IMG/VR virus record: IMGVR_UViG_2799112916_000002
Length of the DNA: 37,819 nucleotides
Direction: 5' to 3' (one strand)
DNA from: a virus
A program made the translations under genes and the position numbers. Each line of letters begins with the position of its first letter. The first letter of the stretch is position 1. Positions 1 to 37,819 of the stretch are shown here, piece after piece. The notes under the pieces were generated by a model that was given only the letters and a program-made list of their open reading frames with translations, had not been told where the DNA came from and searched no databases.

Positions 1-1140
1 ATGAATGACGAGCTATTAAAAAATATGTCAATAACCTGTAACCATTCAAAGGGGACAGCGTTGAATTATGTACATGCTTTGAGAAAGTACTGTGACTATT
101 TTGATATGGAACTTAAAGACTTTCTTGCTGAAGCAGAAGAAGATGAGAATAATGGAGTAAAATGGAAACATAGTCGCTTAAAATCAAGACTTGTTGAGTT
201 TAGGCATCATTTAATGCAAGGTTATGCTTTTAGCAGTGTTAAAAAAGAAATGAATTGCATTAAATTCTTTTACAAATTCTATGACATTGAAATATTGGAT
301 TTACCTAAAGTGAATGAAAAAGCTATTAAAAAATCAGCTCCTATATACTTTAAAGATTTGCCAGATAAGGCAGTAATAAGAGAAGCTTTTAAAATTGCTT
401 CTCCTATGATGAAAGCTGTTATACTATTTGGTTGTTCTAGTGGTTGTGCTAGAGCCGAAACATTGAGTTTGACAGTTGGTGATTACATTGATGCTTTGTC
501 TGATTATTTACCAAGTCGAAATATGGATATCTTTAAAGTAATTGACTATCTCAATGATGTTGATGATGTTGTTCCAACCTTCAGTGTTTTGAGGAAAAAA
601 ACAAACAAATATTATCTCACATACTGTAGTCCTGAAGCTGTAAAAGCTATCAATGCATATCTATTGTTACGTGATAAACCTTTAACTAACGAATGTCCCT
701 TATTTGATATTAGTCGTACACACCTGGTGCGATTATTTGAAGACATTAATGATACTTTAGGTCTAGGAAGGGTAGGTCCATATAGAAGATTCAGAACACA
801 TATGCTCCGTAAATTCCATGCAAGCGCATTATATAATGATGGTATGAGCATAGACAAAGTCAATGATTTACAGGGCAAAGCCAAAAACAAAACCGATGCC
901 GCATATTTCTTGACAAATCCTGAAGATTTAAAATTTGAATATATTGAGCATCTACCGGCAGTAACAATCAACACTGATGTTGAAAAGTTATCTATCAAAT
1001 CTCCGCAGTTCATTCAAATGGAAAAAGAAAACGAATCATTAAGATCCGATGTCGGAAACATGAGAAAAGAACTTGATGAGATGAAAGCATTGAAAAAAGA
1101 ATTTTATGATATTCTTGATAAGGTTGGAGAAGGTTCATAA
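1..1140 (+). CDS. Tyrosine recombinase/integrase
   Basis: SSGCARAETLSL (Arg box), RKKTNK (Lys), HMLRKFHAS (HxxR), LQGKAKNKTDAAYF (nucleophile Tyr); N-terminal core-binding region and C-terminal coiled coil. Confidence 0.9.
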   Translation: MNDELLKNMSITCNHSKGTALNYVHALRKYCDYFDMELKDFLAEAEEDENNGVKWKHSRLKSRLVEFRHHLMQGYAFSSVKKEMNCIKFFYKFYDIEILDLPKVNEKAIKKSAPIYFKDLPDKAVIREAFKIASPMMKAVILFGCSSGCARAETLSLTVGDYIDALSDYLPSRNMDIFKVIDYLNDVDDVVPTFSVLRKKTNKYYLTYCSPEAVKAINAYLLLRDKPLTNECPLFDISRTHLVRLFEDINDTLGLGRVGPYRRFRTHMLRKFHASALYNDGMSIDKVNDLQGKAKNKTDAAYFLTNPEDLKFEYIEHLPAVTINTDVEKLSIKSPQFIQMEKENESLRSDVGNMRKELDEMKALKKEFYDILDKVGEGS

Positions 1141-1329
1141 CCTTATGAAAATTAATAATGGTAACATTCGGCATTTTTTAATATGTGTTGGATGCTATCA
1201 ATATTAATTTTTTATCTATTTTTTTCTATATTTATCCCATTAATTTATTACTTATTTTATATAAAAAATATAATAAATAATATAATAAAAAATATGAAAT
1301 GATTATTATGGGAATTGCTGATTATATTA

Positions 1330-1355
1330 AAACTAGATTATTAAACTAGATTATT
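1330..1355 (+). repeat. Perfect 13-bp tandem duplication AAACTAGATTATT x2
   Basis: Copies at 1330-1342 and 1343-1355; creates TAG at 1347-1349 in the frame of ATG 1308. Confidence 0.97.
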
Positions 1356-2622
1356 GAATAACCGTGTGGAACAGTATAATACTAAGCGTAGCTATTGGGG
1401 AGAAAATGAAAGGCAACCAAGAACTGATGGAATCAATACTGGCCTTGACTTGCCAGATGCGCTGCCACCAGTGATTAATAAAACTATAGCTAATGCCCGT
1501 TATGCCGTTAAACTTGACGGCTACACTTCAGGTATTTTGAAAAACAGAATCGATAAGGCCAATGTCAATATTGTGCTTGTGGACAAGGATAACAAACTCT
1601 CACAGGAACAGAAATTGACTTTGATATTATGGGCTCGCAGAATTGACATCCGCCAGGTGGCTAAAGAGATCCTGCAGGGCGGAATGGTTGACGGTGAGGG
1701 GGTAATCAAACCGGTTCAGCGTTGGGATAAAAAAATCGGCAAATACATTAAACCGGTATTTCTTGAAATAGGTGCACACGGCTATGGCCTCAAAAAGGAA
1801 TTCAACGATGACAATGAGGTGCAGCTATACCTTCATGAGATGCCTAAGGATGTTGTTAATGGATTTCCAGAAGATTTTAATAATTTCATAAGTGTGGAAG
1901 AGGGAACATTAACGGTTAAGTATGAAGCAGGCGAAGTCATTAACTTCATGTACAATGAGATTTACGGCGAAGCTCAAAGTATTATCCTGAATTGCCTTGA
2001 TGACATTTACCACAAGTGCAATCTGGAACGCAATCAGGTTGAGAGAATCAACAAGGACAATATCATTGAAGTCAAGCCATCACTTGATGCAAACGGTAGG
2101 CCATATATCATGGAACTCTCATCAACTGCAAAAGAAAATTTATACGCTGATTACGGGACTACAGCTGACAGTAATGTAGCTATTGTGCCTCCAGGTATTG
2201 AGAGTAAAATTCTTGGTGGTAACAACTACCAGTCCGACTATACAAGACAGACTGAAATCTTCAGAAATAACATTTTAAGAACTTTTGTAACTCCTCAGTC
2301 ACAGGCAGGTAATGAACGTTCCAATCAGAATGTTGCAGAATACATTAACGACTCAGCAATCACAGGGTTCATCGTTAATGTGGCCAATGACCAGAAATGG
2401 GTGCTGAAGTACTGCAATATGTTGTTGAACATGCAGCTGGAACTTATGGGAATTGACGAAACATTGAATGTCTATTTCAGCTATTCAAGGGATGACGTTT
2501 TAAGATACATTATGGAACTTACAGCTGAAGGTGATGAAATCTACAAGAATTATTTAACCAACTTTGAAGAGGAACAACCGGTCGGTGAAAGGATTGTCAG
2601 TGACAGCGGTGTTGAAATATAA
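1354..2622 (+). CDS. Viral portal-like protein; probable native ATG at 1308 is out of frame because of a duplication, so possibly a pseudogene
   Basis: About 420 aa directly upstream of protease/scaffold; portal-like segments DGEGVI, GEAQSIILNCLDDI, VAIVPPGIESKILG, ILRTFVTPQSQAG. ORF track starts at a TTG with no RBS. Confidence 0.65.
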   Translation: MNNRVEQYNTKRSYWGENERQPRTDGINTGLDLPDALPPVINKTIANARYAVKLDGYTSGILKNRIDKANVNIVLVDKDNKLSQEQKLTLILWARRIDIRQVAKEILQGGMVDGEGVIKPVQRWDKKIGKYIKPVFLEIGAHGYGLKKEFNDDNEVQLYLHEMPKDVVNGFPEDFNNFISVEEGTLTVKYEAGEVINFMYNEIYGEAQSIILNCLDDIYHKCNLERNQVERINKDNIIEVKPSLDANGRPYIMELSSTAKENLYADYGTTADSNVAIVPPGIESKILGGNNYQSDYTRQTEIFRNNILRTFVTPQSQAGNERSNQNVAEYINDSAITGFIVNVANDQKWVLKYCNMLLNMQLELMGIDETLNVYFSYSRDDVLRYIMELTAEGDEIYKNYLTNFEEEQPVGERIVSDSGVEI

Positions 2623-2675: not shown

Positions 2676-2685
2676 TGTGATAATC

Positions 2686-3666
2686 ATGAAACATGAACTT
2701 TTTGAAGTAGGACTATACGACTATTCTGATTTGGATGATCGCCTTACAAAACCTGTCAAATGGACAGAAGACGATCTAAAGCAGATTGCAGAAAACTACA
2801 GAGGCGGAATTCCTTTAACCTCAGAACATGACAAGGTTTACATAGGCATTGGAAATAACATTGTTTTTGAGGAGGATAAGGGAAAGCTGTTCATTGAAGT
2901 TCCTGACGAACTGGACATGAAAGGAAAAGGCCTGTCACCTAAAGTGGATGTTTTACTTAAAGATAACGGAGATACATTTGGAATTGATACTATGAGCTTA
3001 ATAGATGTTGGCGTAACCAAAAGCCCAAGAAAAATAACTTTGCTGAACTCAGAAATAACCGGCGAGACTGGAGAAACCGGAGAGACCGGTGCAACCGGAA
3101 ATCCCGAACCTGCACCACAGCCGCCTACTAGTGAAAATCAGGATGTTAATGTGGCAACCAATCTGCTCCTGGAAAAACTTCAGGGCAAGGATGCTGAAAT
3201 CGGAAAACTGCAGGATGAGATTAATAGCTTAAAAGAGGAATCTGAAAAATACAATGAGATTAAAAAAGCTATTGAAGAGAACAAGGAATTCATTGAAAAC
3301 AAGGAAGATATCCTAAAGGAATTATCTGAACTCAGAAAACATGAAAACGAAAGGAAAATTAAAGAGTACGAAGCCAAATACAACTTCAACTATAATGAAA
3401 ACCAGCAGGACAAGGAGATAATCGATAAATTATTGTCCGGGGATGTTGATATGGAACTTATGGAGAAACTGGCCGAGAGAAGAATTAAAATCGAAGCCAG
3501 TAATGACGGTTCAACACCTGGAGGAAGAAATCCCCAAAACTCCGGTGATGTAATTGAAACCGGATCAACCGGCAGCACCGGAGATGATGATAAACCTTCA
3601 TTTACAACTCGTGAAGAATACAATAAAATCCTAAAGGACATGGGTTTCAACAGAACAAGAATCTAG
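2686..3666 (+). CDS. Prohead protease-scaffold fusion (Mu gpI-like architecture)
   Basis: N-terminal domain with candidate catalytic His (TSEH) and Ser (GLSP) and LIDVGVTKSP; then TGE/TGA linker, long acidic/Lys coiled coil and low-complexity tail. Start moved to ATG 2686 after GTGATAATC; follows portal. Confidence 0.65.
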   Translation: MKHELFEVGLYDYSDLDDRLTKPVKWTEDDLKQIAENYRGGIPLTSEHDKVYIGIGNNIVFEEDKGKLFIEVPDELDMKGKGLSPKVDVLLKDNGDTFGIDTMSLIDVGVTKSPRKITLLNSEITGETGETGETGATGNPEPAPQPPTSENQDVNVATNLLLEKLQGKDAEIGKLQDEINSLKEESEKYNEIKKAIEENKEFIENKEDILKELSELRKHENERKIKEYEAKYNFNYNENQQDKEIIDKLLSGDVDMELMEKLAERRIKIEASNDGSTPGGRNPQNSGDVIETGSTGSTGDDDKPSFTTREEYNKILKDMGFNRTRI

Positions 3667-8264: not shown

Positions 8265-8266
8265 GA

Positions 8267-8518: not shown

Positions 8519-8542
8519 AATTCTTTGGAGGATATTGTTATC

Positions 8543-9386: not shown

Positions 9387-9390
<4 letters not shown>
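8797..9390 (+). CDS. GT-A fold glycosyltransferase (GT2-like, phage type)
   Basis: ILIAVPT, ARNQIA, YDYVLMVDSD (DxD), GLGIALIKV, SEDLYFC; ATGA overlap with the upstream gene. Confidence 0.85.
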
Positions 9391-10919
<1,529 letters not shown>

Positions 10920-10944
10920 ACTAAATCCATTAAATCCCTAAATT

Positions 10945-10976
10945 AAGGAAGTGCCGTGCGTACTTCCTTTTTTTTT
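10945..10976 (+). terminator. Hairpin plus T-tract terminator
   Basis: AAGGAAGTGC / GTACTTCCTT (10 bp, one G-U), 5-nt loop, then a T run. Confidence 0.7.
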
Positions 10977-11000
10977 AAAAATTCATAAAGGTGATAAATA

Positions 11001-11342
11001 ATGTCATGGGTAAATGTAGGAAACATAAAAGGAGATACAGGAGAGACAGGTGATGACGGATTCTCACCATACATCACTGTAGACAGAGCTCACGGATTTA
11101 TCGTCTTTGGCGATGAGGATTCAGAGCAGACCGTATACTTCTCAGACCTGAAAGGACCTAAAGGCGATACCGGAGCAACCGGCCCTGCAGGTCCAGTTAA
11201 TGTGACTTCAACTTTGGATACAGCTGACAATACCAATGTGGTTGTCAACAGTGCAATAGCTACAGCCATTCAAAACGTCAACAATCAGATAGGGACAATA
11301 ACAGCTGCACAATCAGCCAACTTAACATTACTTGGGAGCTGA
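11001..11342 (+). CDS. Short collagen-like fibre adaptor
   Basis: [17 protein letters not shown]; GFSPYITV...TVYFSDLKG motif shared with the 13305 product; helical C-terminus; RBS AAGGTG. Confidence 0.75.
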   Translation: MSWVNVGNIKGDTGETGDDGFSPYITVDRAHGFIVFGDEDSEQTVYFSDLKGPKGDTGATGPAGPVNVTSTLDTADNTNVVVNSAIATAIQNVNNQIGTITAAQSANLTLLGS

Positions 11343-11347
11343 TTGAC

Positions 11348-12208
11348 ATGGCCTTCACTCCTCCAGACCTTTCAGAAATCTTGACCAACGAACAGGAATT
11401 AAACAGCAGATTAATCTCATTAAGGACAATACTGCGAAACCAATGGACAGCAATAGGAGACAGCTATTCTACCAATGATTCAATAAATAAATTAGTCACT
11501 GACATGTCAAATCCCCTTCCTTTTGTTGTGAAAAGAAATTCTGAGTATAAGGAGGGCCAGCTCGGAACCAGAGTTGCAGTTACAGGATGTGACGTATATT
11601 CCTGGAACCAATACAATCCGGCAACATATAATGATAATGACTACTGGTATCTGCAATCCTTATCAAAGGCCAAAACCAGCAATACTGCCGTAGCATGGGG
11701 CCAATTCAATACCGGTTCTGTTTTACCAACAGATAAGTTTGATTTAGTCATGTATGGTAGAGATATGGAAAACTTCAACAACGGAGCTTTTTCAGGTGTA
11801 GGATTTACATACACTGTTCCAGCAGCAGAAACTGCATTTTCAGGATTGTTCATAGGAATCACATTGGATTCAGGAACCTATCATCCGGCATATGCAATAT
11901 TCAACAACAGCACCACTCCAACATCAATTGTTAAAATGGATTATGGAACATATCCGTCAGCATCAACTGAATTCAGATTGCTGCTTCAAAACGATCCGGA
12001 TGGTGATTGGCTGAAGCTCTCATGGTATAAGGGAGATGGGGGTGAATTTCTATGGAATGACTTCATAGACTATTCTGATTTGCCTTCCGGTTTTAGTCAG
12101 GTGGAAAATCTTGTATTCGGTAATGTATGTTATGGAACTGGGCTTGGAAGGATGTCTTATGTTCCAAGGTTATGTTTTGCATCCCCATGCAGGTTCAATA
12201 TTTTATAG
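11348..12208 (+). CDS. Putative fibre tip/receptor-binding protein
   Basis: Helical N-terminus with YSTNDSINKL, then aromatic beta-rich domain; within the fibre cluster. Confidence 0.45.
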   Translation: MAFTPPDLSEILTNEQELNSRLISLRTILRNQWTAIGDSYSTNDSINKLVTDMSNPLPFVVKRNSEYKEGQLGTRVAVTGCDVYSWNQYNPATYNDNDYWYLQSLSKAKTSNTAVAWGQFNTGSVLPTDKFDLVMYGRDMENFNNGAFSGVGFTYTVPAAETAFSGLFIGITLDSGTYHPAYAIFNNSTTPTSIVKMDYGTYPSASTEFRLLLQNDPDGDWLKLSWYKGDGGEFLWNDFIDYSDLPSGFSQVENLVFGNVCYGTGLGRMSYVPRLCFASPCRFNIL

Positions 12209-12220
12209 GAGGTAATGTTA

Positions 12221-13303
12221 ATGTCAATTGCAGGAAATGTGGTGGATACAAATAACAAATTAGCTATTGTAAGGAATAACTTGAAAGCATTATTGGAAGA
12301 ACACGGAATCGTATATTACAGCACTGATGACATATTCACATTGGCAAGAAGAGCGTGGTTTCTGGTATATCCTACAAACGGTGCACAGGGCGGAAGCTAT
12401 TCCACAGATGCGGTTGTGGGACAGCCAATCAATTTCAATGTGACTATGAGAGGAGATGATGACAACGATTTGCCGGACGGTTCCGTTGCGGATTTTTTCG
12501 TAAGTGTCAACGGAGGTGGTGAGATTCATCTTATAGGCAAATCTCTAAACGGGGAGGCAAGCTGCCCGTTTGTTCCTCAAAATTCCGGAGATGTCCTGCA
12601 TGTTAGAAGTATGGTCAATGACTGGGCAGGTGTTAATACGGACATTGATGTTTATGCATTCAGATATGAGGACGGATGGGAAGTGAACACTGATGATTAC
12701 ACATTAGTCAAATATCCGACTTCAGCTACCGTTAATGTCATTGAGGTTGATGAATTCAACAGTGATTATGACTATGCAAACGGCATTGAGGTTTCAAAGA
12801 CATACGGAGCACCGCAGGCAGCATACATTATTCCAACAATATTGCTTGATGGAGTTGACTTGTCTGATACCGGAATTCATTTTTCGGCAGTTGTAAGTCC
12901 TATGTATTCATCTTCAAGCGGATGGGCTTGCGGAATATGTCTCTTGAATTCCAAAACCTTAACTCATTGCCGTGACAATAAGATTCTGGAATTGGGTGCA
13001 TATCCAGGCAAAAAAGGATTGAAATATTCAGGAACAGACCATACAATAACGGAAATAAATACAACATCCGGACAGCTGACAATAAACGGAGCTTTCAGAT
13101 TCGACTTGTGGTACGATGGTAGCTATGTTAAAGCTGTAATTGAGCATTACTGGAACGGTACTGTTTATTACAGTTATGAAAGTTCATCTTTACCTTCAGC
13201 AATAGCTGATATGGATACTGTCTTTCCTGCATTCATGATTTATGACTACGGCGGAAAAATAAGATTCAGGGACACATTAATTGAACCATGGAGCAGTGAT
13301 TAA
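12221..13303 (+). CDS. Putative fibre tip/receptor-binding protein (Ig-like plus lectin-like domains possible)
   Basis: Helical N-terminus with YSTDDIFTL resembling the 11348 product; beta-rich remainder; GGAGGT upstream of ATG 12221. Confidence 0.45.
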
Positions 13304-13304
13304 G

Positions 13305-14486
<1,182 letters not shown>

Positions 14487-14791: not shown

Positions 14792-15058
14792 ATGGAATTT
14801 TCAGATGAAATGTTAAAAGAAATGAGTTATGTAAAGATTTCTAAGTACAGAACTAAAGTAATGAAATCTTTAGTGGGTGAAGTTAAAATACCGACTGTCA
14901 TTGCTAAAGATTCAGAAATTAGACCAAATCATATTTCAAAAGTTCTAGCGGAATTAAAAGCACATGAACTTGTTGAATGCATCAATCCGGAAGTTAGAAA
15001 AGGTAGATTGTATAGGTTGACTGATAAAGGCGACGAGTTAGTTAAAAACATTGATTAA
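14792..15058 (+). CDS. Winged-helix (MarR/ArsR-like) DNA-binding protein
   Basis: KIPTVIAKDSEIRPNHISKVLAELKAHELV...KGRLYRLTDKG. Confidence 0.85.
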   Translation: MEFSDEMLKEMSYVKISKYRTKVMKSLVGEVKIPTVIAKDSEIRPNHISKVLAELKAHELVECINPEVRKGRLYRLTDKGDELVKNID

Positions 15059-15095
15059 TTTCTTTTTTAATACCTCATTTATAGAAGGGATGTAT

Positions 15096-15518
15096 ATGGT
15101 AGACAAATTTAGCAAGGAGACTCGTAGTTATGTCATGTCACGGATTAAGGGCAAAGACACCAAACCTGAAATTCTTGTTCGTAGCTATCTGTTTTCGAAA
15201 GGTCTGAGATTCCGAAAAAATGACAAAAGATATCCTGGCAGTCCTGATGTTGTACTTCCAAAATACAGGACAATTGTATTTGTTCATGGATGTTTCTGGC
15301 ATCTCCATGATGGATGCAAATATGCAAAAATGCCAAAATCCAATGTTGATTACTGGGAGAAGAAACTTTACAGAAACAGGGAACGTGATGAACACAATCA
15401 GAAAGAACTTGAAGAAATGGGTTGGAATGTCATCACTGTGTGGGAGTGCGAATTGAAAAAAGACAAACGTGATCAGACGCTTGAGGAATTATATGTCCAA
15501 ATAACCTCTAAAAACTGA
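15096..15518 (+). CDS. vsr: Very short patch repair endonuclease
   Basis: MSRIKGKDTKPE, LPG-type YPGSPDVV, IVFVHGCFWHLH, NRERD, VITVWEC; start moved to ATG 15096 after GAAGGGA. Confidence 0.95.
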   Translation: MVDKFSKETRSYVMSRIKGKDTKPEILVRSYLFSKGLRFRKNDKRYPGSPDVVLPKYRTIVFVHGCFWHLHDGCKYAKMPKSNVDYWEKKLYRNRERDEHNQKELEEMGWNVITVWECELKKDKRDQTLEELYVQITSKN

Positions 15519-15846
15519 GATACTGAATTTCACTATCTTTAGTAATGTAGACATTTACATTTGAAATGATATCTTCTTTTCAAGCATATTTTAAATCTTT
15601 AACATTTATTAAATTCGGTGGAGACCATATAAACATGACAAATTTATCACATAATTTAAACGAGTTGTTACCATAATTCCAAAATTATTTATACCATAAC
15701 TTATATTATTTTAAATAAGAAAGTTTTTTTATTTTCAATAATATTTTAAAGGATACTTTCATCTGGTTTTCATATTCTTTATAATATTCTGAAACTTTCA
15801 AGGCAAAACCATATGTCAAGTTTAAAGAAACTTAGGAGACATTAAA

Positions 15847-17454
15847 ATGAATGCGAAAAGTACAAAAATTAATGAATTCTTCCAAGGAAGAAAACAACAT
15901 ATAATACCTATACATCAAAGAAAGTATAGTTGGACTAAGAACGAAGAATGTAAACAGCTTTTTGACGATATATTGACCAGTGGCCAAACACCATTAGAAT
16001 ACAACGAAAAAATGGGCGAATATGAAGAAATCCCACATTATCTTGGAGCTATTGTATACAAAGATATAAGTAAAAGTGGTGAATCTTTAATTAAAAGAGT
16101 TGTCGAAGATGGACAGCAAAGAATTACTACATTAACCTTATTAGTATTGGCTATGGTAGAAAATATTAAAAAGCATCCTAAAGCTTGTGCAATTAAAGAT
16201 ATTAATAATGTTGATCAATTACTTGAAGACTATGTTATTAATCCTTACTCAAAAGGAGAGGAATATTATAAATTAATTCTTAATGAGAGTGATAAAAACG
16301 ATCTTAAAGAATTAATTGATATGATTGTTTCTGGCGAAAGTATTGATTCAAAAAAGATTAAAATGCATAATACAAGCAATATTTTTGCTAATTTTAATTT
16401 CTTTAGATCTAAAATTAATAAAAATAATATTAATGATTTATATCAGGGGTTACTTAGATTACAAATAATTGAAATTTATCTAGAAAGATATGATATTGAC
16501 CAAGTAATTTATGAAACTTTAAATTCAACTGGAAAATCTTTAAGTATTGTGGATCGTGTTAGAAATTATTTGTTAATGGGGTTACCTCCTGAAGAGCAAA
16601 CTGAATTATATGAACATTATTGGAGGAGTATGGAAATATTATTTGAAGAGTATAATCCAATATACTTTGATAGGTTCATAAGATATTATTGCATCATGAA
16701 ACTTAAAAGGGGCGTAAAAACTGTTAATGTTTATAGGGATTTCAAAAAACTCACAAATAACTATAAAGATGCCACTTTGATTGTTAAGGAATTATATAAA
16801 TATGCTAAATATTTTATTAATATTCATTTTGATGAAGAAGATGAAGAAGATTTAAAATATTTATTTAAAGATTTTAGTGAATCCAATCCGATGGAATTTT
16901 CACCATTCCTTTTGAAAATATATGCTGCATATGAAGATGGAAAAATTTCAAAAGAAGAATTTGTTAATGTTATTAAATTATTAGATTCTTACCTTATGAG
17001 AAGGGGCCTTTGTGGTTTAAGTGGAAATACAGGTTCTGATGGTACCGTTGTTAGGATAATGAGGGTTGTAGACATAGATGATCTTGTGAATTCTTTTTCC
17101 GAGTTCCTTTTAAGTATTAAAGGAAATTTAAGATTCCTATCAGATGAAACAGTCAGGGAAACACTTATGAATAAGGATTTCTGTTTATTTAAAAGAAATA
17201 GATTCGTATTAAATAAATTGGCTAATGATGGTAAAAATACTCATGTTGATTTTTCTGATTTGAAAATTGTTAGGCTTAAAGTTGATTCTGATATCGATGA
17301 GATGTATCTAACTAAAATTGGTAATTTAACTCTTGAAGAAATAGATTTGTGCATGGATGTTGATGCGGAATCTGATGAAGAGTTTATTGATAAAAGAAGC
17401 GAGTTGCTTATCGATAAAATTATTGATATATGGAGTTTTCCAACTTTATCTTAA
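15847..17454 (+). CDS. DUF262 (GmrSD-like) protein with degenerate DUF1524-like C-terminus
   Basis: IIPIHQRKYSW, HYLGAIV, EDGQQRITTL, IYETLNSTGKSLS, VRNYLL; C-terminus keeps IGNLTL but lacks the EHxxP and following Asn motifs. Confidence 0.85.
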   Translation: MNAKSTKINEFFQGRKQHIIPIHQRKYSWTKNEECKQLFDDILTSGQTPLEYNEKMGEYEEIPHYLGAIVYKDISKSGESLIKRVVEDGQQRITTLTLLVLAMVENIKKHPKACAIKDINNVDQLLEDYVINPYSKGEEYYKLILNESDKNDLKELIDMIVSGESIDSKKIKMHNTSNIFANFNFFRSKINKNNINDLYQGLLRLQIIEIYLERYDIDQVIYETLNSTGKSLSIVDRVRNYLLMGLPPEEQTELYEHYWRSMEILFEEYNPIYFDRFIRYYCIMKLKRGVKTVNVYRDFKKLTNNYKDATLIVKELYKYAKYFINIHFDEEDEEDLKYLFKDFSESNPMEFSPFLLKIYAAYEDGKISKEEFVNVIKLLDSYLMRRGLCGLSGNTGSDGTVVRIMRVVDIDDLVNSFSEFLLSIKGNLRFLSDETVRETLMNKDFCLFKRNRFVLNKLANDGKNTHVDFSDLKIVRLKVDSDIDEMYLTKIGNLTLEEIDLCMDVDAESDEEFIDKRSELLIDKIIDIWSFPTLS

Positions 17455-17671
17455 ATAAATTTATTATTGGTTAATATTTGATTATTTAATCATAATATTA
17501 TCTTCTTTTTTTTGTTTGATACAATGACTTTTCTTTTGTCCACATATAGTATGTCTATTGGCAGGTAATGATTATTGGGGTTTGAATAATTATTTAACTT
17601 TATTTTTAACAAAACATTTATATACTTCAAAAACATAATATACTCTAATTAAACTCAAAAGTGGTGCAAAT

Positions 17672-17845
17672 ATGAGTAAAAGAATACAAGTTAATTTCAC
17701 TGATGAACAGTATGACCTTCTTCAAAAGCTCAAGGGAGAGCTTGGAAGTAGCGATTCAGATGTTGTAAAAAATATAACTATATCTTGGCTTACAGAAAAG
17801 TCATTCATATCAACAACATTAAAAGAAAAATTATTTGGAGAATAA
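17672..17845 (+). CDS. CopG/ribbon-helix-helix regulator (57 aa, below the ORF-track cutoff)
   Basis: Translated by hand: MSKRIQVNFTDEQYDLLQKLKGELGSSDSDVVKNITISWLTEKSFISTTLKEKLFGE; RBS GTGGTG; ends 3 bp before the MTase ATG. Confidence 0.8.
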   Translation: MSKRIQVNFTDEQYDLLQKLKGELGSSDSDVVKNITISWLTEKSFISTTLKEKLFGE

Positions 17846-17848
17846 ACC

Positions 17849-19141
17849 ATGAAAAAGAAAATGATTAGTTTATTTACAGGTGCTGGGGGTCTTGATTGGG
17901 GATTTCACAACAGCAATAATTATGAACTTGTAATAGCTAATGAAATCTTAAAACCTCACCTGAAAACATATGCAGACAATCATAAGATAAAATTGATTGA
18001 CATTAAAGAGTATAACAATGATGATGACGTAGCTGTTTGTGGAGATATACATGAATTAAGCGTTCCATTAAAAACAGACATCATCATGGGAGGTCCGCCA
18101 TGCCAGGACTTTTCTGTTTTAAGGGGCAGTGACAACAGGGCAGGTTTCACTGTTAGACGTGGAAAATTATATGAGCAATATCTAAGAATTATAGAATCAA
18201 CCAATCCAGATGTGTTTGTTTTTGAGAACGTCGTTGGAATGGTTTCAGCCAATAAAGGTGCAGCTTATGAAGCCATCCAAGATGACTTTAAAGATGCAGG
18301 ATATGATTTAGTTTTTAATGATATTTTAAACATGTCAAATATAGGAGTTCCACAAGCTAGAAAAAGATTAATCATAATAGGCATTAATAAAAAGCTTAAA
18401 ATCGATGAAAATAAAGCTAAAGATATAATTAATAAATATCTCTGCAATCCTATTCTTGAAAAATATCCATTAGTCCCATTAGAAGTATTCGAGGGTAAAA
18501 TATTAACTGACCTTCAGGATTCTTATGTTAGTATAATGAAGAAGTATTCTGATTGCATGAATGGCATCGATAATGAATATTCAGAAAAATGGAAAAGCGA
18601 ATATGAATCTTTAACTTTTGATATAAAAGAGGATTATTTGACTAATAACAATGTTCAAGATTATGATGATGCAGAATTTGATCATGCCATGAAAGAACAT
18701 GAAAATATACTTAAGATATTGGGCTATTATGGCAGAAAAGTTGATGAACAAACATTTATTGATGATACCAACAATAGGGGACGTAAAAATAGGAAAGTTA
18801 CAGAAAGGATGCACCACATCCCTCCGTATTATAATTTTAAGGCTGTTGACAATACTGAATGGAAAGTCAAAGGTTTAATGAGCAATATTTATAAAAGAAT
18901 TCATCCATTAAAACCTTCCCCAACGGTGATTGCCTATGGTGGGGGAGGAACTGGAGGTTATCATTATGAATATGATAGGCAGGGGTTAACTAATCGTGAA
19001 AGAGCCAGATTGCAGACATTCCCTGATAATTATATATTTAATGGTAAAACTACGGAGATTAGGGCTCAAATTGGAGAAGCAGTTCCTCCATTGGCCAGTT
19101 ATTGGATTGAAAAAGTTGTTCATGATATTTTGAATTTATAG
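17849..19141 (+). CDS. dcm: DNA (cytosine-5)-methyltransferase (dcm is a family-level label; specificity unknown)
   Basis: Motif I LFTGAGG, IV GGPPCQDFS, VI FENV, VIII PQARKR, IX RERARLQTFP, X QIGEAVPP. Confidence 0.95.
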   Translation: MKKKMISLFTGAGGLDWGFHNSNNYELVIANEILKPHLKTYADNHKIKLIDIKEYNNDDDVAVCGDIHELSVPLKTDIIMGGPPCQDFSVLRGSDNRAGFTVRRGKLYEQYLRIIESTNPDVFVFENVVGMVSANKGAAYEAIQDDFKDAGYDLVFNDILNMSNIGVPQARKRLIIIGINKKLKIDENKAKDIINKYLCNPILEKYPLVPLEVFEGKILTDLQDSYVSIMKKYSDCMNGIDNEYSEKWKSEYESLTFDIKEDYLTNNNVQDYDDAEFDHAMKEHENILKILGYYGRKVDEQTFIDDTNNRGRKNRKVTERMHHIPPYYNFKAVDNTEWKVKGLMSNIYKRIHPLKPSPTVIAYGGGGTGGYHYEYDRQGLTNRERARLQTFPDNYIFNGKTTEIRAQIGEAVPPLASYWIEKVVHDILNL

Positions 19142-19220
19142 CATACCATACAAATTTGAAGAAGTCTTAGTCGAAATAATTATATTAATCTTTTAATTAT
19201 ATCTATAATTAGTGTTTATT

Positions 19221-20297
19221 ATGGGTGGAAATATTAAAAAGATTAAAGTCGACTTAACTGATGACTTTCTTAAAAAGGCAATATATTGGATTATTTGTAA
19301 GTATGATATGGATGAATTTAAAAGAGAACAGTCTTCCTCAAAAAGAGCTTTATTGGGCGGTTTCATTGACCGTTGGATGAATAAAGCTCCAGAATTTTTA
19401 ATTTTCGATGAACTGCTGAAAGATAAAAATTATTCAGCAGTCAATGATACTTTTTTTTACACTAAGGGGGAATCAAAAAACGCTCCGGACATTTTGGGAT
19501 TGATAGATAGTAATGGAAAACAATATCCATTTGCACGGTTCAAAGACAACAAATGGGAAGTTGTTGAGGGAACACCATTCATTGAAATGAAAACATTTCG
19601 TAGCGACCAAAGTTTAGTCACTATCCCATATACTCAATTCGATGATGATCATTATTATGCAATTGTCGAATCTCATCTTGAAGAAGATTATTTGCTTTCA
19701 CTTTTTGATGATGAATTATTTGAGAATGACGAATATTACAATTCCATAACCAGTTTGAAAGAAGATGAATTTATTATTTCAAATGACGAAGGCATTATTA
19801 AAAAGCCAGATAAATTAACTAAAAATGATGTGTTGGGTTATTATAATCTGTTTGGAATCTATAGAGGTATTGATTTGAGGAAATATTCTCAGATTGTTGA
19901 ACAGGGTGACAATCCAATGTATTTTTCTGAAGAAACAGAACCTCCATCCAGATTTAATAGTAAAAAGATAGTCAATCCTCCAATCAGATTAACAACGGGA
20001 ATTTATTATTTTAATGATGATGAAAATAATATTCCAGTCGATATTAAAGTATTTGAAGGTGGGGAATTATTAATCAAACATAAAATTAAAAGTGCATTGG
20101 ATGTTGAAGTAAATGGACATGTTGAGGTTGACGGCATTAAGTTAAGTCAAGGCATGAGGCGTTTAGCATTTAAAAATTTCGAAAAAAATGGTAGCATCAA
20201 AGAAATCGCAATGACAAAAACAATCTTGGAATGTTACAATGAAGAGATTTCAGCTATTGATGAATTAATACTTGAATTTGAAAGCATTGTAGAATAG
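19221..20297 (+). CDS. Putative PD-(D/E)xK restriction endonuclease
   Basis: APDILG...FIEMKT candidate active site; directly downstream of the C5 MTase. Confidence 0.55.
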   Translation: MGGNIKKIKVDLTDDFLKKAIYWIICKYDMDEFKREQSSSKRALLGGFIDRWMNKAPEFLIFDELLKDKNYSAVNDTFFYTKGESKNAPDILGLIDSNGKQYPFARFKDNKWEVVEGTPFIEMKTFRSDQSLVTIPYTQFDDDHYYAIVESHLEEDYLLSLFDDELFENDEYYNSITSLKEDEFIISNDEGIIKKPDKLTKNDVLGYYNLFGIYRGIDLRKYSQIVEQGDNPMYFSEETEPPSRFNSKKIVNPPIRLTTGIYYFNDDENNIPVDIKVFEGGELLIKHKIKSALDVEVNGHVEVDGIKLSQGMRRLAFKNFEKNGSIKEIAMTKTILECYNEEISAIDELILEFESIVE

Positions 20298-20308
20298 ATA
20301 TTATTAAT

Positions 20309-21067
20309 TTAAATTTCTTCATTAATTTTTTCTAAATCGAGAATGTCATGCATATCTGCTATATGACAATAGTAATTCTGTGCATCCATTCTTGTTTTTC
20401 CATTAAGCAGATCTCCCCTATTGATGATGAATTTATTATTGATCAGATATTTTAAATCATCATGGGTCAAGTATCCTGGAATGTCAAATGCCCAGCTATT
20501 GCTTTTAAATTTATCCCATAATTTTGCTTTATCACAGATCTGTGAATAATATAGTCTGTTTCTTTTCATAGTTTGTTCGATTTCATCTTCTAAACGAACC
20601 ATTATTGTAATGTCATAATGTTCGTTATTATTGGGAATGTATTTTGCATCTAAAGTCCAATCTTTAGTTTCTAGTAATAATAATTGTCCAAAGTACTTTG
20701 TGGATTTAATGGAAGTTATTAAATCATCAATTTTAAAATCGTACTTGTCCCATTTTCCTAATTCGTAAACTTCCAAATCAGGTTCGTTGATGTCATGAGT
20801 TTCATTTAATGTTTGATAAACAGCAAATTCACATAATTTTCCTTGAAATGTATTTGCAAATATTTCACCATTTTTTCTTCTGTGTCTACCTCCGCTTCTG
20901 TAGGCTCTGTGCTGTCCTTTACTGCCGAAAGTCATAGAATAAGCAAATTCAAATGATTTCTTAACATATTCATCTTTAATTTGTCCCATTTCATCAAAAT
21001 ACTTCTTTACAGAAATATATTTAATTTTTGGATTGTCTTTATCAACTTCCAATCTATTGAACTTCAT
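20309..21067 (-). CDS. Putative PD-(D/E)xK endonuclease
   Basis: QGKLCEFAV...KYDFKI...SIKST pattern; convergent with 19221-20297. Confidence 0.55.
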   Translation of the reverse strand: MKFNRLEVDKDNPKIKYISVKKYFDEMGQIKDEYVKKSFEFAYSMTFGSKGQHRAYRSGGRHRRKNGEIFANTFQGKLCEFAVYQTLNETHDINEPDLEVYELGKWDKYDFKIDDLITSIKSTKYFGQLLLLETKDWTLDAKYIPNNNEHYDITIMVRLEDEIEQTMKRNRLYYSQICDKAKLWDKFKSNSWAFDIPGYLTHDDLKYLINNKFIINRGDLLNGKTRMDAQNYYCHIADMHDILDLEKINEEI

Positions 21068-21229
21068 TGCATATAATTTTATATTTTATAATTAAAATAG
21101 CTACTTTATTTCATGTACATTGCAATATTGATTTAATCGTGTAAAATTACAAGTTGAAAGCAATAATGCATTGGACTTATATCAAAAAGCTTTTATAGGT
21201 CTTTATTCAATTAATAATTAGTGATTATT

Positions 21230-21631
21230 ATGAATAAAGAAAAAATAAGAACATATGATGAACTTGAAGATGATGAAAAAGAAGTTCTTGATAGTTTCAG
21301 GAAAATGAAGCTAATGTATGATCATGCCAGATTCAAATTGCATAGACTTCATGTTGAAGATCTAATTAATGATTATGGGCAGCTAAAGAAATTACGTGAA
21401 GAAATTCAAGTCAAATACTTTTCAATTTATGAAGAGTTGCTGGCTGAAGATTTAATCGAAGGTGAACTTGATGCAAGTGTTTGGGGAATTACTCGTGAGC
21501 ATGAAAATGAGGTCTGGGATTCCGAAATCAGACTGATGAGCGACATCAAAACCGATTTTGACATTGCCATTGCCATGATTGAAAGTGGCGAAGCCGAGCA
21601 GGCAATCATTGACGATGAAAACAATTTATAG
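21230..21631 (+). CDS. Acidic helical hypothetical protein
   Basis: ORF with GTGATTATT before ATG 21230; no motif recognised. Confidence 0.6.
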   Translation: MNKEKIRTYDELEDDEKEVLDSFRKMKLMYDHARFKLHRLHVEDLINDYGQLKKLREEIQVKYFSIYEELLAEDLIEGELDASVWGITREHENEVWDSEIRLMSDIKTDFDIAIAMIESGEAEQAIIDDENNL

Positions 21632-21829
21632 TATAATCAACATATATTGTAGTGGAGACGGAATCATTATTGGCTGTTTTTTATAGAAATGGGCCGATTT
21701 AATTTCAAAATTAAACCTCAACAATATTAGTTTGTTTTCCGAGCTCATTTCTGTTCTATCTCCATGTATTCTCTTTTTTCAAAATCCTAACCATCAATGT
21801 CACTCCTCACTTAACTTTAAAAAAAGTAG

Positions 21830-21895
21830 CTATAATATATAAATCTTTATATATTATAAGTAATAAATTATATAATAAAATATATAATAAATTAA
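21830..21895 (+). promoter_or_regulatory. AT-rich promoter with repeated TATAATAAA units upstream of the decoration-capsid operon
   Basis: Shares exact 18-22 nt strings with the 2641 and 8016 regions. Confidence 0.5.
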
Positions 21896-21913
21896 GTGGA
21901 GGACATTAACAAA

Positions 21914-22393
21914 ATGCCAGATTCAATTGTTTTATTAGAAGAGCGTAAAGAAGTAACAACTTTCCTTCTGGATGAGGGCACAATCACCGCAACCACCGTG
22001 ACAACTCCGACCGGAGAGACTCCGGGATACGAGTATTCAGGAAACAAAATCAGGGTCGATGACGCCGTGACACTGTCAGCAAACTCAGACATCGGAAAGC
22101 CTACAGTCAAGAAATACACTGCAGCCGAGGGCGAAATCATACTGGGCGTTGCAGTAAACGACCCTGTCACCATGACCGGAGGAAGAAGAAAAACCTCAAT
22201 ACTTGTATTGGGCCATCTCTTTAGATTAAAACTTGCATCAGGACTTTCAAACATTAAGGTCAACGACAGGATAGCACTGTCAAGCACAGGAGCCATCAAA
22301 TCCGACAACGGCGAGTTCATCGCAATGCATCCGGTGGAAAGCTCAGACGACTACAACTACATCGAAGTGTTCAGACCCTATGACATAACATAG
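21914..22393 (+). CDS. Capsid decoration/cement protein (DUF2190/lambda gpD-like position and size)
   Basis: About 160 aa, beta-rich, immediately upstream of the capsid-like genes; GGAGGA before ATG 21914; paralogous to the 7229 and 9387 products. Confidence 0.6.
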   Translation: MPDSIVLLEERKEVTTFLLDEGTITATTVTTPTGETPGYEYSGNKIRVDDAVTLSANSDIGKPTVKKYTAAEGEIILGVAVNDPVTMTGGRRKTSILVLGHLFRLKLASGLSNIKVNDRIALSSTGAIKSDNGEFIAMHPVESSDDYNYIEVFRPYDIT

Positions 22394-22412
22394 AAGCGGA
22401 GGAAATTAGATA

Positions 22413-23351
22413 ATGATTACAAAGGGAAACGATACCAAAGTACAGAATGAGGTAATAGCTCAGACCATTACCGACGAGTCAGCCAAAAGGCTGAGGCTGG
22501 CAAGACTCTTTCCAAAGCAGGAAATAAAGGAGAACTCAGACTACTATACCTACTTCAGGCAGAACATCAACCTTGACGAAGCCATTAAACGTGGTCTTTT
22601 AGGCGAGGCAAAGGATTTAGCCCCTGGGGCATCCTTACAGGAATTAAACATTAGAAAGCCGGTAACCGATACAATCTCAATAGACACTGTCGGTGGTGTC
22701 CTGAACGTGAACAAGGATGTCTTTGACAGCGACAGGATCTCCTTTGAGGACTTGCTGGCGGATGTTGCAACACTCATCGCCAACAAGATCGAATACAACA
22801 TCTACGACACCATCGTAAGCTCACCGAAGGTTCCCAAATACAATACCACACAGACCGAGGACACCATGGAGGCATTCGGTCAGTTCGTCATTAAAGCGCA
22901 GGAAGCATTTAAAGGAAAATCCGGTGCAGGCGCCGATTTGACAATAATGGTCGAGTCATACAGGACATTGAGCTACATCAAGCAATTGGCCTATATCTCA
23001 AACAAGTCAGTCCAGCCGATAGAGGAGATTCAGGCATACTACGGTGTTGACAACATTGACTTTTTAGGGACAACCCATGCGGACGGTGGATCAATGCTCG
23101 GCGAGAAGGACTACATCGCATTCGACATAAGAAATGCCCCATTGACCGTTTTGTATTCCAAGTCTTCAGGAACAACCGTTGCGCCAATCACATCCGATCC
23201 GGAGATTGCCGACTTTTATCCGATCATTGAAATCATGAGAAAGGACATCTACGATGAGCTGCCCCAGTACACAAAGCTTTTCATACAAAGCAAAGTGGGC
23301 GTACTGTTGAACAAGCCGCATCTTGCACTGACAGGAACATGCAGGCCATAA
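22413..23351 (+). CDS. Major capsid protein-like, copy 1 (HK97-type inferred)
   Basis: 312 aa; RLFPKQE...YYTY...LAPGASLQE...TISIDTVGGVLNV...LIANKIE pattern; follows the decoration gene; RBS GGAGG. Confidence 0.65.
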   Translation: MITKGNDTKVQNEVIAQTITDESAKRLRLARLFPKQEIKENSDYYTYFRQNINLDEAIKRGLLGEAKDLAPGASLQELNIRKPVTDTISIDTVGGVLNVNKDVFDSDRISFEDLLADVATLIANKIEYNIYDTIVSSPKVPKYNTTQTEDTMEAFGQFVIKAQEAFKGKSGAGADLTIMVESYRTLSYIKQLAYISNKSVQPIEEIQAYYGVDNIDFLGTTHADGGSMLGEKDYIAFDIRNAPLTVLYSKSSGTTVAPITSDPEIADFYPIIEIMRKDIYDELPQYTKLFIQSKVGVLLNKPHLALTGTCRP

Positions 23352-23367
23352 ACGGAGGAGTGATAAA

Positions 23368-24294
23368 ATGTTAACCAAAGGAAATGACGCTAAAGTACAG
23401 GATGAGGTGATGGCCCAGATTGTAGCCGACACTTCAGCCAAATGGATGAAATTCACAAGACTTATCCCAAAGCAGGAAATCGAGGAAAACTCCCAATACT
23501 ACACTTACATGTCCCAGAGAGTCAACATCGATGAGATAATTGACAAGGGACAATTGGGCGAGGCAAAAGACATCGCTCCCGGTGCTACCTTACAGGAGCT
23601 GAACGTGAGAAAGCCTGTAAGCGACACCGTGTCCATCGACACCATCGGGGGAGTGCTGAATGTATCTGCGCAGATGCTGGATTCTAATTTGATAAGTGTC
23701 CATGACATGCTTCAGGATGTCGGGATACTTATTGGTCGCAGCATCGAGCAGGCAGCCATAAACATGATTTTAAACAATGACAAGGTGCCGACCTATAACT
23801 ATACTGCCGGTGACGACTCAGGAGTCACAATCCTCAAGGCCCAGGAGAAGTTCAAGGAGTCAGCGGGAAGTTATTGTAATCTAAACAGCATGGCAGTCAA
23901 CTACAAGTCCCTGACCACCCTGAAATCAGACATGTTCGCAAACAACAAAAAGGTCGAGCCTATCGAGGTCATAAGGTCATATTACGGTGTGGACAATATC
24001 GATTTGTTGGGAACTGCTGTCTGTGACGGAGGATCTGAAATCGATGACAAGACCTATATCGGAATGGACTACCAGAATCCCGGAATGAAATTATTATACT
24101 CAAGGATTTCCGGAACAACCGTTGCGCCACTCGGACCTGACGGTGACGTGTATGATTTCTATCCGCTGATTGAATTCATGCGTAAAGATATTCGAGATGA
24201 ACTGCCGATGTATACAAAGCTATTCATACTCACCTCAGTAGGTGTGCTGATGAATGCGCCTAACAGAATCATCAAAGGCAAGTTCAGGGCATAA
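23368..24294 (+). CDS. Major capsid protein-like, copy 2
   Basis: 308 aa, colinear with copy 1 end to end (TKGND.KVQ, LGEAKD.APGA.LQELN.RKPV, YYGVDNID.LGT, SGTTVAP, E.MRKDI.DELP.YTKLFI); RBS GGAGGAG. Confidence 0.65.
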   Translation: MLTKGNDAKVQDEVMAQIVADTSAKWMKFTRLIPKQEIEENSQYYTYMSQRVNIDEIIDKGQLGEAKDIAPGATLQELNVRKPVSDTVSIDTIGGVLNVSAQMLDSNLISVHDMLQDVGILIGRSIEQAAINMILNNDKVPTYNYTAGDDSGVTILKAQEKFKESAGSYCNLNSMAVNYKSLTTLKSDMFANNKKVEPIEVIRSYYGVDNIDLLGTAVCDGGSEIDDKTYIGMDYQNPGMKLLYSRISGTTVAPLGPDGDVYDFYPLIEFMRKDIRDELPMYTKLFILTSVGVLMNAPNRIIKGKFRA

Positions 24295-24303
24295 TCTCTT
24301 AGA

Positions 24304-24329
24304 GTTAGTGAAGTCTTCTCTTCACTAAC
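24304..24329. terminator. Perfect hairpin after the capsid operon
   Basis: GTTAGTGAAG / CTTCACTAAC, 6-nt loop, 10 bp after the copy 2 stop. Confidence 0.65.
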
Positions 24330-24384
24330 ACATTAACTCATAAATATGCAGAATGGCTATATTATATAAATAGGAGCTATAAAA

Positions 24385-24783
24385 ATGAAACTGATTCTGG
24401 ACAGTGAAAATTCACATCCGACAACAATAACGGTCAAGGGAAAGGAAATAACATTGCTTTTGATAGAATCCAGCATTCTAATCGATTCAACACAAATTGC
24501 AAAGATATTTGATAAAAAGGAAAAGACAGTAGCTACCAAAGTCCAGAAATCCGGGCTTGAGAAATACGAAACCGAAAACGTTAAGCTGCTTAAAAATTAC
24601 GGACTGATGCATCCCGATGCCGTTAAGCCAAGGCCGTTTTATGACTTAAGACAGATTTTGGAAGGGCCTGCATATTATTATTTTGAACAAACGGATGAAA
24701 CAGATCTGATTGATGTCATTGTACGTGTGGCTATAGGTAAGCACCGTGAATGGATTCATAACAGGGACATTGATGAATATTAA
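24385..24783 (+). CDS. Hypothetical protein, possibly DNA-binding (antirepressor-like)
   Basis: RBS AGGAG; IDSTQIAKIFDKKEKTV resembles a helix-turn-helix; weak resemblance only. Confidence 0.4.
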   Translation: MKLILDSENSHPTTITVKGKEITLLLIESSILIDSTQIAKIFDKKEKTVATKVQKSGLEKYETENVKLLKNYGLMHPDAVKPRPFYDLRQILEGPAYYYFEQTDETDLIDVIVRVAIGKHREWIHNRDIDEY

Positions 24784-25073
24784 CCTTAACATTGTATATT
24801 TTTTAAGAAAAAACTATTAAAATAAATTTAAAGCTTTAACTTCAGATATCTATCTATTTTAATCTATCTCTTCAGGTTCTATGTCTATTCAACAATTCTA
24901 TTTCTTTATGGGATTTTTTAAAACTTTAAACTTTCAATAGCCATAATTTGACTATTTTAAATTCATTCATATTTGGAATAATAAAACTTGTTTTAAATGT
25001 TGTTCAGTGAATTTAAAATTTATATAACAAGTTTGATATAATATATATCAGTTAATGTTGTTGAGGTTAAACG

Positions 25074-36817: not shown

Positions 36818-37141
36818 TTTTAACTCATGTTAATTCAGTTTATCATTTAAACTACTGTTATTCATTATACTAATACAATTTTAATTCTTTCTATTTAAAA
36901 TTAGGTAAACTCAATATGATTAGTGGGAAAAACGTTATTGTTGAGTTAATAGTTTACTTTATATTTTTTTATTTTATTGTAAAAATTTTATGCAATCTTT
37001 TTTTAAGCATATCTTTTCAATTTTTAATTATAATTTATTCAATTTAGTTTTAGAAATATTTAAGTATTTTTCCACATATAGTTTAATTATATATTAATTA
37101 TTAATTAATATGTTGTAATTTTTTATAAAGAGGTAAAATCC

Positions 37142-37819
37142 ATGAAGAATTATAGAATATTTATAATTTCTTTATTATTGTTAATTTTCATGATTGGCGC
37201 AGTAAGTGCTACAGAGGAAAATTCAACTGATAATTTAGAAATTTCGGGTGATATAAGTATTTCAGAAGAGACTTTGCCTTCTGTTGATAATATGGGGGAA
37301 GATCAAAGTTCTAGTTCTGATGATGTTTTAGGTGTAAGTACTGAAGATTCAACTAGTGATGATATTATTGCTGATGGGGGAGAATCTTCTCCGTACAAAG
37401 CTGTTGCTAATGTGACTAGCTATAATGTTGTGGTTGATGATGGTAGTAGTGTGAATCTTCAATTTTTATATAAAGAGGATGATTCTCCTGCTGCTGGTAA
37501 GAATTTCACTGTTTGTTTAGTTGGGCATGATGCTGAAGACAATGTTATTATTAATAACTATAATTTTATTTCAGATAGTAATGGTGTTGGTAGTTTCTTG
37601 ATAGATGTTCCTGAAGGTTACTATGAGATTCAATCAATTTATGATATAAATAATTGCATTGTTCGATTACCTGATGGGGTTTATATTTCTGTAACTGTTA
37701 CATCTACTATTCTTAAGAACACTATTGTTGCTGATAATGCTACTTTCACTGCTGGCGGTTCTATGGATTATGAGGTTAAATATTTGGATGAAGATGGTAA
37801 TCCATTAGTTGGTGAAGAT
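37142..37819 (+). CDS. Adhesin-like protein, 5' part (runs off the window)
   Basis: Translated by hand: MKNYRIFIISLLLLIFMIGAVSATEENSTD..., acidic linker, FISDSNGVGSF Ig-like motif; RBS GAGGT; no stop before 37819. Confidence 0.85.
   Translation, partial: MKNYRIFIISLLLLIFMIGAVSATEENSTDNLEISGDISISEETLPSVDNMGEDQSSSSDDVLGVSTEDSTSDDIIADGGESSPYKAVANVTSYNVVVDDGSSVNLQFLYKEDDSPAAGKNFTVCLVGHDAEDNVIINNYNFISDSNGVGSFLIDVPEGYYEIQSIYDINNCIVRLPDGVYISVTVTSTILKNTIVADNATFTAGGSMDYEVKYLDEDGNPLVGED

Follow-up and report, generated by a model that had tools for sequence, protein, structure and literature searches.

The stretch of DNA analysed here (IMG/VR virus record IMGVR_UViG_2799112916_000002; 37,819 nucleotides (nt), hereafter the window) is the provirus of a true tailed virus, similar to 'Caudoviricetes sp. 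vir323', that is integrated in a rumen Methanobrevibacter, and it carries two adjacent paralogous genes, A and B, for major capsid proteins (MCPs) of the HK97 type. The capsid of this virus is probably built from two related proteins. The arrangement that we favour, at a rough probability of 45%, is one in which, by analogy with known two-protein heads, A would form the hexamers and B the vertex pentamers of one head. The HK97 fold, the viral context, the shared operon, the long co-retention of the two genes and the strong selection on both copies are established; from these we infer that A and B co-assemble in one shell and which of them sits where.

A and B were called with translation table 11 as open reading frames (ORFs) of 312 and 308 amino acids (aa), both on the + strand (Table 1). 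BLASTP aligns the two proteins colinearly over residues 1-311 with 168/311 identities (54%, E 9e-123) and a single 4-residue gap, a similarity far above chance level that confirms the original prediction of two tandem, full-length, colinear ORFs, roughly half identical. Each copy also has the ribosome-binding site of its own that had been predicted, with GGAGG lying 9-10 nt 5′ of the ATG (at 22398-22402 for A and 23354-23358 for B). The spacer between A and the preceding 159-aa gene, the first of the operon, is 19 nt, and that between A and B is 16 nt; because the spacers are this short, internal promoters have no room. Upstream of the three genes, ~45-95 nt 5′ of the 159-aa gene, a block containing the TATA-like TTTATATA at 21846-21853 is kept across 12 vir323-like loci while the flanking sequence is variable, and this block is a putative archaeal TATA-type promoter. 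Downstream of B lies a hairpin (-13.9 kcal/mol, z -4.6, with 0/200 shuffles equally good) that is not followed by a T-run and is a candidate terminator or RNA-stabilising end. Together with the short spacers, these elements agree with the single upstream promoter and single downstream hairpin that had been proposed for both copies. In RNA-library contigs of related strains, from two studies, both genes are covered and the sequence continues from the end of A into the first part of B, which hints weakly at co-transcription; being assembled contigs, these give no levels, and DNA carry-over is possible. The codon composition of the two genes is alike, with a third-position GC content (GC3) of 0.58 in A and 0.57 in B, and their ribosome-binding sites are equally good.

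The 159-aa gene appears to encode a decoration- or cement-like protein. Its mechanical ORF begins at GTG 21896, with ATG 21914 being the preferred start (GGAGG at 21898-21902). The protein is 51% identical to the product of the gene 5′ of the single MCP in the related locus L037 and 31% identical to that of the gene 5′ of the single MCP in L023, where weak Phage_cement and XM1_gp53 Pfam matches are found; its homologue is labelled 'preneck appendage protein' in the vir323 record. The decoration-type protein of L037 matches not only the 159-aa gene (21914-22387; 51%) but also, at 44%, the fibre-module gene in its N-terminal part (9387-9848), and because it matches both, the decoration domain is reused at the start of the collagen-like fibre protein.

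B reaches the cut-off of the Pfam family PF25209, Phage_capsid_4 (28.5 bits vs 27), and 8/19 family members match PF25209. Searched alone, A gave no Pfam match at E <= 0.1; neither protein matched a Pfam Gp23 family or any PHROG, and PDB sequence searches with B alone and with a 19-sequence profile returned nothing meaningful. The family is small, with only 82 relatives among 1.84 billion cluster representatives in an exhaustive profile search. An AlphaFold2 model of B, built from a 42-sequence alignment of these profile-search relatives and further homologues, has a predicted local distance difference test (pLDDT) score of 82 and a predicted template modelling (pTM) score of 0.79. The model matches HK97 gp5 (Foldseek E 3e-12, probability 1.0), the MCP of archaeal HFTV1 and many phage MCPs, while in BFVD it finds viral MCPs at E 6e-14. 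In VIA-align, encapsulins and phage MCPs both score Z 15-17.6, over about 230-257 residues; encapsulins top the list (Z 17.6), and because phage MCPs score within 1-2 Z units of them, this list cannot tell a virus shell from an encapsulin. On this model B has the HK97 fold, and A, from its 54% colinear identity to B, is predicted to share it. The description of the pair as major-capsid-like is borne out by the PF25209 match and by all three comparisons of the B model, with A following through its identity to B, and structure prediction, which had been proposed as a check of the fold, returned an HK97 fold for B.

Across nine genomes, 144 columns are invariant in both paralogues and 75-76 are fixed differences between A and B. 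When placed on the secondary structure of the B model, the fixed differences cluster in residues 101-200 of B (the spine helix and the axial-domain helices), in residues 237-256 and in the C-terminal dozen residues, while conservation is highest in the E-loop region (B 61-100), at residues 197-216 and along the long P-domain strands (257-296). Ahead of the first helix of the axial domain, A has a derived insertion of 4 residues, B being of ancestral length, and in the separate tandem pair of a Methanobrevibacter smithii lineage, described below, the longer loop is likewise in the upstream copy. It is well established that in HK97-type shells the E-loop, N-arm and P-domain contact neighbouring subunits and capsomers, with the axial domain packing round the capsomer axis (bioRxiv 10.64898/2026.07.24.740622). 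Because the contact regions are conserved and the spine and axial regions differ, the pattern fits two subunits that dock in one lattice but pack differently round the axis.

Both copies are under strong purifying selection, as judged from sequence comparison by the Nei-Gojobori method. In 60 locus pairs with 0.05 < dS < 1 (dS being saturated in many other pairs), A has a median ratio of nonsynonymous to synonymous substitution rates (dN/dS) of 0.037 and B one of 0.028, the highest value being 0.08. At sites that differ between A and B, ancestral states are retained in 23 vs 19 cases, so that the two copies are about equally diverged from their single-copy relatives. These values and the symmetric divergence do not support a decaying or fast-evolving duplicate in either copy. 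The base composition of the genes is a separate matter. The GC3 of A and B in the window is the highest of 29 loci (the others, L039-L078, have 0.20-0.51 for A and 0.32-0.46 for B), with B exceeding A in most loci, and the head genes are 46% GC in a genome of ~30% GC. Relatives with only ~85% DNA identity to the window genes still reach up to 99% identity in the proteins, and nearly all of the changes are therefore synonymous.

The pair is kept wherever it can be assessed. In a scan of species-representative genomes, these genes were found at 46 loci, nearly all in metagenome-assembled genomes (MAGs) of ruminant Methanobrevibacter, with B following A by 13-20 nt wherever the contig continues, and IMG/VR has one related contig. 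Both copies are intact and gap-free in 29 loci, while four are damaged (L075, with a stop in A; L082, with a break in A; L079 and L080, with stops or frameshifts in both copies), and no single-copy locus was found among about 36 assessable related loci. The genes are present in 8/151 Methanobacteriaceae genomes, seven of which have the tandem pair, with two pairs in the complete related genome G126; the eighth (G114) has a fragment at a contig start. The original prediction had left room for one copy being under relaxed selection or missing from related loci. Neither is seen: dN/dS shows both copies to be constrained, and the pair is retained in every assessable locus. Because 29 loci keep both copies intact and no locus has one alone, both appear to be needed.

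More distant members of the family (L020, L023, L033 and L035) have one MCP in ordinary head modules. L037, on a 32.9-kb contig, has a single MCP that is 47-48% identical to A and to B, along with the same gene order as the window virus (portal, protease, 250-aa protein, fibre, decoration-type gene, MCP). The M. smithii lineage, which is very common among human-gut M. smithii (236 index blocks), carries a separate tandem pair, with products of 310 and 309 aa. On the metagenome contig L031, where this pair occupies 5062-6930, its members are 56% identical to each other, with a 167-aa decoration-type gene before them and a Peptidase_C39-like gene after. Identities among A, B, both M. smithii copies and the single-copy clade are 45-56%, and together these form a polytomy. 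Approximately unbiased (AU) tests reject neither A and B as sisters (p 0.48) nor the M. smithii pair as sisters (p 0.34), and signature sites show no positional orthology between the pairs (8 vs 5); the pairs may stem from one ancient duplication or from two parallel ones, neither being favoured by these tests or sites. A further 312-aa protein, P0203, on a Logan contig of 13,884 nt, is a chimera in which residues 1-~205 are ~100% identical to A of the window and the rest is 93-100% identical to B. It may have come from natural recombination that fused the pair into a single gene, or it may be an assembly artefact; the longest identical run between A and B in the window is 18 nt.

The DNA 5′ of the window consists of host housekeeping genes (IleRS, PurL, MoeA and others). 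With tblastn, one virus was retrieved from the GenBank phage collection, vir323 (BK063679.1 / NC_133304.1), a circular genome of 34,179 bp from a goat faecal enrichment with Methanobacteriales as host, in which portal, prohead protease, tail and tail-fibre proteins, a DNA methylase, the 'preneck appendage protein', a pseudomurein endopeptidase (a lysis enzyme), the large terminase (TerL) and two consecutive 'major head protein, HK97-like fold' genes are annotated. The window itself, whose contig ends at 37819, is without a terminase gene. TerL is encoded by vir323 and by both copies of the virus in G126, and the same assembly as the window has TerL homologues on contigs C18 and C43 that are 93-94% identical to the G126 TerLs. 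The shell genes are in this way encoded alongside portal and protease genes in the window and alongside TerL in vir323 and the G126 copies, with TerL on other contigs of this assembly. With its portal, protease, fibres and integrase, and with relatives that have TerL and a circular 34-kb genome, the element is the provirus of a tailed virus and hence neither a satellite nor an encapsulin. A capsid-forming, size-redirecting satellite (of the cf-PICI or P4 type) was rejected on the TerL, fibres and pseudomurein endopeptidase of vir323 and on the two full copies in G126, and an encapsulin on the neighbouring genes (decoration-type gene, portal, protease, fibres and integrase). Within this assembly (G000; C18, C43; L024-L029) two TerL copies were found, yet one MCP pair, and a second integrase on C43 has 72% nucleotide identity to window 1-1031.

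In the division of labour that we favour, A and B would both serve as structural subunits of the shell in a single temperate, vir323-like virus of rumen Methanobrevibacter. One transcript would carry A, B and the small decoration-type protein, and A and B would assemble into the same icosahedral head, where A, the upstream copy with the slightly larger axial domain, would form the hexamers and B, the downstream copy of ancestral length, the eleven vertex pentamers. The original prediction had offered several roles for the pair. A two-protein shell, either heteromeric or split between hexamers and vertices, holds up as the best reading, both proteins being HK97-fold, intact, selected and kept together; two further proposals are unsupported. 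A dominant-negative or size-redirecting subunit directed against a helper does not suit an element that is its own virus (vir323 is circular with a full gene set and the G126 copies carry TerL), and alternative capsid sizes are not borne out by the syntenic single-MCP relative L037, whose contig is about the size of vir323. Several points weigh against assigning A to hexamers and B to pentamers. The equal ribosome-binding sites and codon composition do not predict the ~6.5:1 ratio of a T=7 hexon/penton split, and the differences between A and B are subtle at 54% identity, compared with the 18% identity and large structural differences of the two shell proteins of the mycobacteriophage Jabs, discussed below. 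Mixed hexamers would also be compatible with this conservation pattern. In this provirus the portal gene is frameshifted, so this copy may no longer make particles.

The main rival of the hexamer/pentamer split, which we consider unlikely but worth keeping in view, is a truly heteromeric shell in which A and B take different quasi-equivalent positions within mixed hexamers, for example as alternating A3B3. The equivalent translation signals suggest similar amounts of the two proteins, the two have moved equally far from the ancestor and are under equally strong constraint, and two-component shells of HK97-fold paralogues do exist in Family 2B encapsulins (PDB 9bje/9bix). Both solved cases of dual MCPs in tailed viruses (T4 and Jabs) are nevertheless hexon/penton splits, and pentamers would still need one of the two proteins. 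We know of no tailed virus in which hetero-hexamers of HK97 MCPs have been shown. Less probable again is that each paralogue builds a full head alone, with one, the other or a variable mixture being used, possibly for antigenic or defence escape or for packaging different genome lengths. Provirus sizes in the group do vary with cargo, and P0203, if real, hints at interchangeable parts; redundancy of this kind, however, would make copy loss common, yet it is seen in 0 of the about 36 assessable loci, dN/dS is ~0.03-0.04 on both copies, the syntenic single-MCP relative has about the same genome size and P0203 may be an assembly chimera.

We think it improbable that one copy acts outside the shell, whether as a scaffold-like factor, as a decoy or as a dominant-negative protein that poisons competitor capsids in superinfection exclusion. 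Competition is plausible where several Methanobrevibacter genomes hold more than one related element (the two copies in G126; two TerL genes and two integrases in this genome), but both proteins are full length with all fold elements, the E-loop and P-domain contact regions are the best conserved in both, neither evolves faster and both lie in the late structural operon. Very little weight, finally, falls on there being no virus head at all, the proteins forming instead an encapsulin-type compartment, a domesticated particle like a gene-transfer agent or a helper-dependent capsid-forming satellite. The place of encapsulins at the top of the VIA-align list and the lack of a terminase in the window would suit this view; against it, encapsulin and phage MCP scores are non-discriminating, the distribution is patchy (8/151 genomes), no cargo-type gene is adjacent, and integrase, portal, protease and fibres are all present in an element whose relatives have TerL and a circular 34-kb genome.

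Table 1. Features of the window, with positions counted from its first nucleotide.
Feature	Position	Strand	Basis
Tyrosine integrase, provirus left end	1..1140	+	Phage_integrase Pfam match, below cut-off
Portal gene	1308..2622	+	Homologous to the gene after TerL in L020 and to vir323 'portal protein'; homologous part 1354-2622
Prohead protease homologue, the sole one	2677..3666	+	Matches L037 305-aa protein, itself matching vir323 CDS 1508-2476 'prohead protease'
Collagen-like tail-fibre module	9387..14486	+	Collagen and Phage_tail_C Pfam matches, PHROG tail-fibre families
Variable cargo island between fibre and head modules	15051..21067	.	Pfam matches: Vsr, GmrSD, C5 DNA methylase; two unknowns
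Promoter-like block 5′ of the three-gene head operon	21820..21869	+	Conserved in 12 vir323-like loci
Decoration/cement-like protein, 159 aa, first gene of the operon	21914..22393	+	Homology to genes 5′ of single MCPs
MCP-A, HK97-fold major capsid protein paralogue	22413..23351	+	54% colinear with B; 85.6% identity to vir323 CDS 17941-18879
MCP-B, HK97-fold major capsid protein paralogue	23368..24294	+	PF25209; AlphaFold2 model; ~85% identity to vir323 CDS 18896-19822
Hairpin 3′ of B	24304..24329	+	10-bp stem, 6-nt loop

The portal gene of the window has a damaged reading frame. Its natural start, ATG 1308, is thrown out of frame by a 13-bp tandem duplication (1308-1356), so that it reads MGIADYIKTRLLN and then a stop, with the portal protein resuming in another frame; vir323 reads through uninterrupted. 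Either this provirus may recently have been disabled by the frameshift, or the duplication may be an assembly error. Capsid genes A and B show no damage in the window.

Compared with the two copies in G126, the window has conserved blocks at 1242-3708, 5977-14486 and 21110-24784, and the cargo island is swapped for other genes in both copies. In the window this island is of defence type and encodes a Vsr endonuclease, GmrSD and a C5 cytosine methylase along with two unknown proteins. A low-GC insert that separates the protease gene from the next conserved gene carries a minus-strand gene pair (4089-5733), one encoding a DUF4411 (PIN-like) protein and the other a peptidase of the M78 (ImmA/IrrE) type; the two probably make up a module for regulation or of the toxin-antitoxin type. 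On the 3′ side of the head operon (25074-37819) lie two giant adhesin-like ORFs of 2053 and 1860 aa and a third that is cut at the contig end. Contig C18 (30000-56495; L026, L027) ends in similar adhesin-like ORFs beside endopeptidase-like, 277-aa and TerL genes. Should contigs C31 and C18 be contiguous, the provirus would measure at least ~47 kb, vs 34 kb for vir323, which would be too large for the same head or point to a rearrangement.

In nearly all HK97-fold heads, one shell protein adapts to both hexamer and pentamer positions, and two shell genes are rare in tailed viruses. To our knowledge, a split between two paralogues has been shown only for T4 and, very recently, for Jabs. The authors of the Jabs study describe a two-paralogue split as unprecedented among icosahedral phages (bioRxiv 10.64898/2026.07.24.740622). 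A second kind of small-genome virus with two selected shell genes would offer an independent natural experiment on what makes a lattice require two subunits, here with an archaeal host and with a parallel pair in viruses of the dominant human-gut methanogen, and since A and B are still 54% identical, the changes that matter could be mapped. If A and B do alternate or take fixed quasi-equivalent positions, an archaeal tailed virus of ~34 kb would have a truly heteromeric HK97 lattice, one that would have arisen or been kept in parallel in the vir323-like and M. smithii lineages. Practical value is limited for now, the virus group being without an isolate and the genes already in the public record.

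Among known systems, vir323 is the nearest record and belongs to the same virus group. A and B are each ~85% identical to its head genes, and the two viruses share the make-up of the operon (small protein, A, B) as well as portal, protease and fibre genes; the two-gene arrangement is already annotated in its public record, and full-text searches, in a scope without the vir323 catalogue paper (Nat Microbiol 2023), found no text discussing the duplication. The window copy differs from vir323 in being integrated, in its cargo (Vsr, GmrSD, Dcm and the adhesin-like giants), in the frameshifted portal start and in its much higher GC3. In T4, gp23 forms the hexamers and gp24 the vertex pentamers, the two being encoded by adjacent paralogous HK97-fold genes. 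That T4 builds one shell from two paralogous proteins is also stated in the Jabs preprint (bioRxiv 10.64898/2026.07.24.740622). T4 and the window virus are thus alike in each having two adjacent, paralogous shell genes of the HK97 fold. T4 differs in its large prolate head and its genome of 169 kb, as opposed to ~34 kb here, and A and B have no Pfam Gp23 match.

Jabs, a siphophage of Mycobacterium abscessus, is together with T4 the nearest parallel in mechanism. Cryo-electron microscopy places its MCPh (ORF72) in the hexons and its MCPp (ORF73) in the pentons of a T=9 head, the penton protein having a bent spine helix, a smaller axial domain and no C-terminal extension (bioRxiv 10.64898/2026.07.24.740622). 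Its genes are likewise adjacent, with that of the hexon first, and the spine helix, axial domain and C-terminus, in which its proteins differ, are the regions in which A and B differ. The Jabs proteins, however, are 18% identical and of 594 vs 257 aa, in a disulfide-linked head, whereas A and B are 54% identical, of near-equal length and accompanied by a decoration-type gene. Archaeal tailed viruses that keep two HK97 MCP genes are also known in the Ekchuahviridae of ANME-1, where every MCP is paired with a maturation protease of its own, another virus group was the source of the second MCP and genome sizes are 70-80 kb (PMC9894754). Here, in contrast, there is a tandem duplication with a single protease gene (in vir323 and the window) and a 34-kb genome; a dual MCP of the Ekchuahviridae type was rejected on that single protease gene and on the placement of A and B in one clade of mutually 45-56% identical proteins. 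The Family 2B encapsulin of Streptomyces lydicus (PDB 9bje, 9bix) resembles the pair in consisting of two paralogous HK97-fold proteins, both chains of which match the B model at Z ~16, but it is a cellular nanocompartment without portal, terminase or tail, while the context here is viral. Because there is no Gp23 match and the nearest single-copy relatives lie within the same small family of archaeal viruses, the duplication is independent of those in T4 and Jabs. The origin of the pair is separate from that of the Ekchuahviridae and Family 2B pairs as well, and it may work as the T4 and Jabs pairs do without belonging to their gene families.

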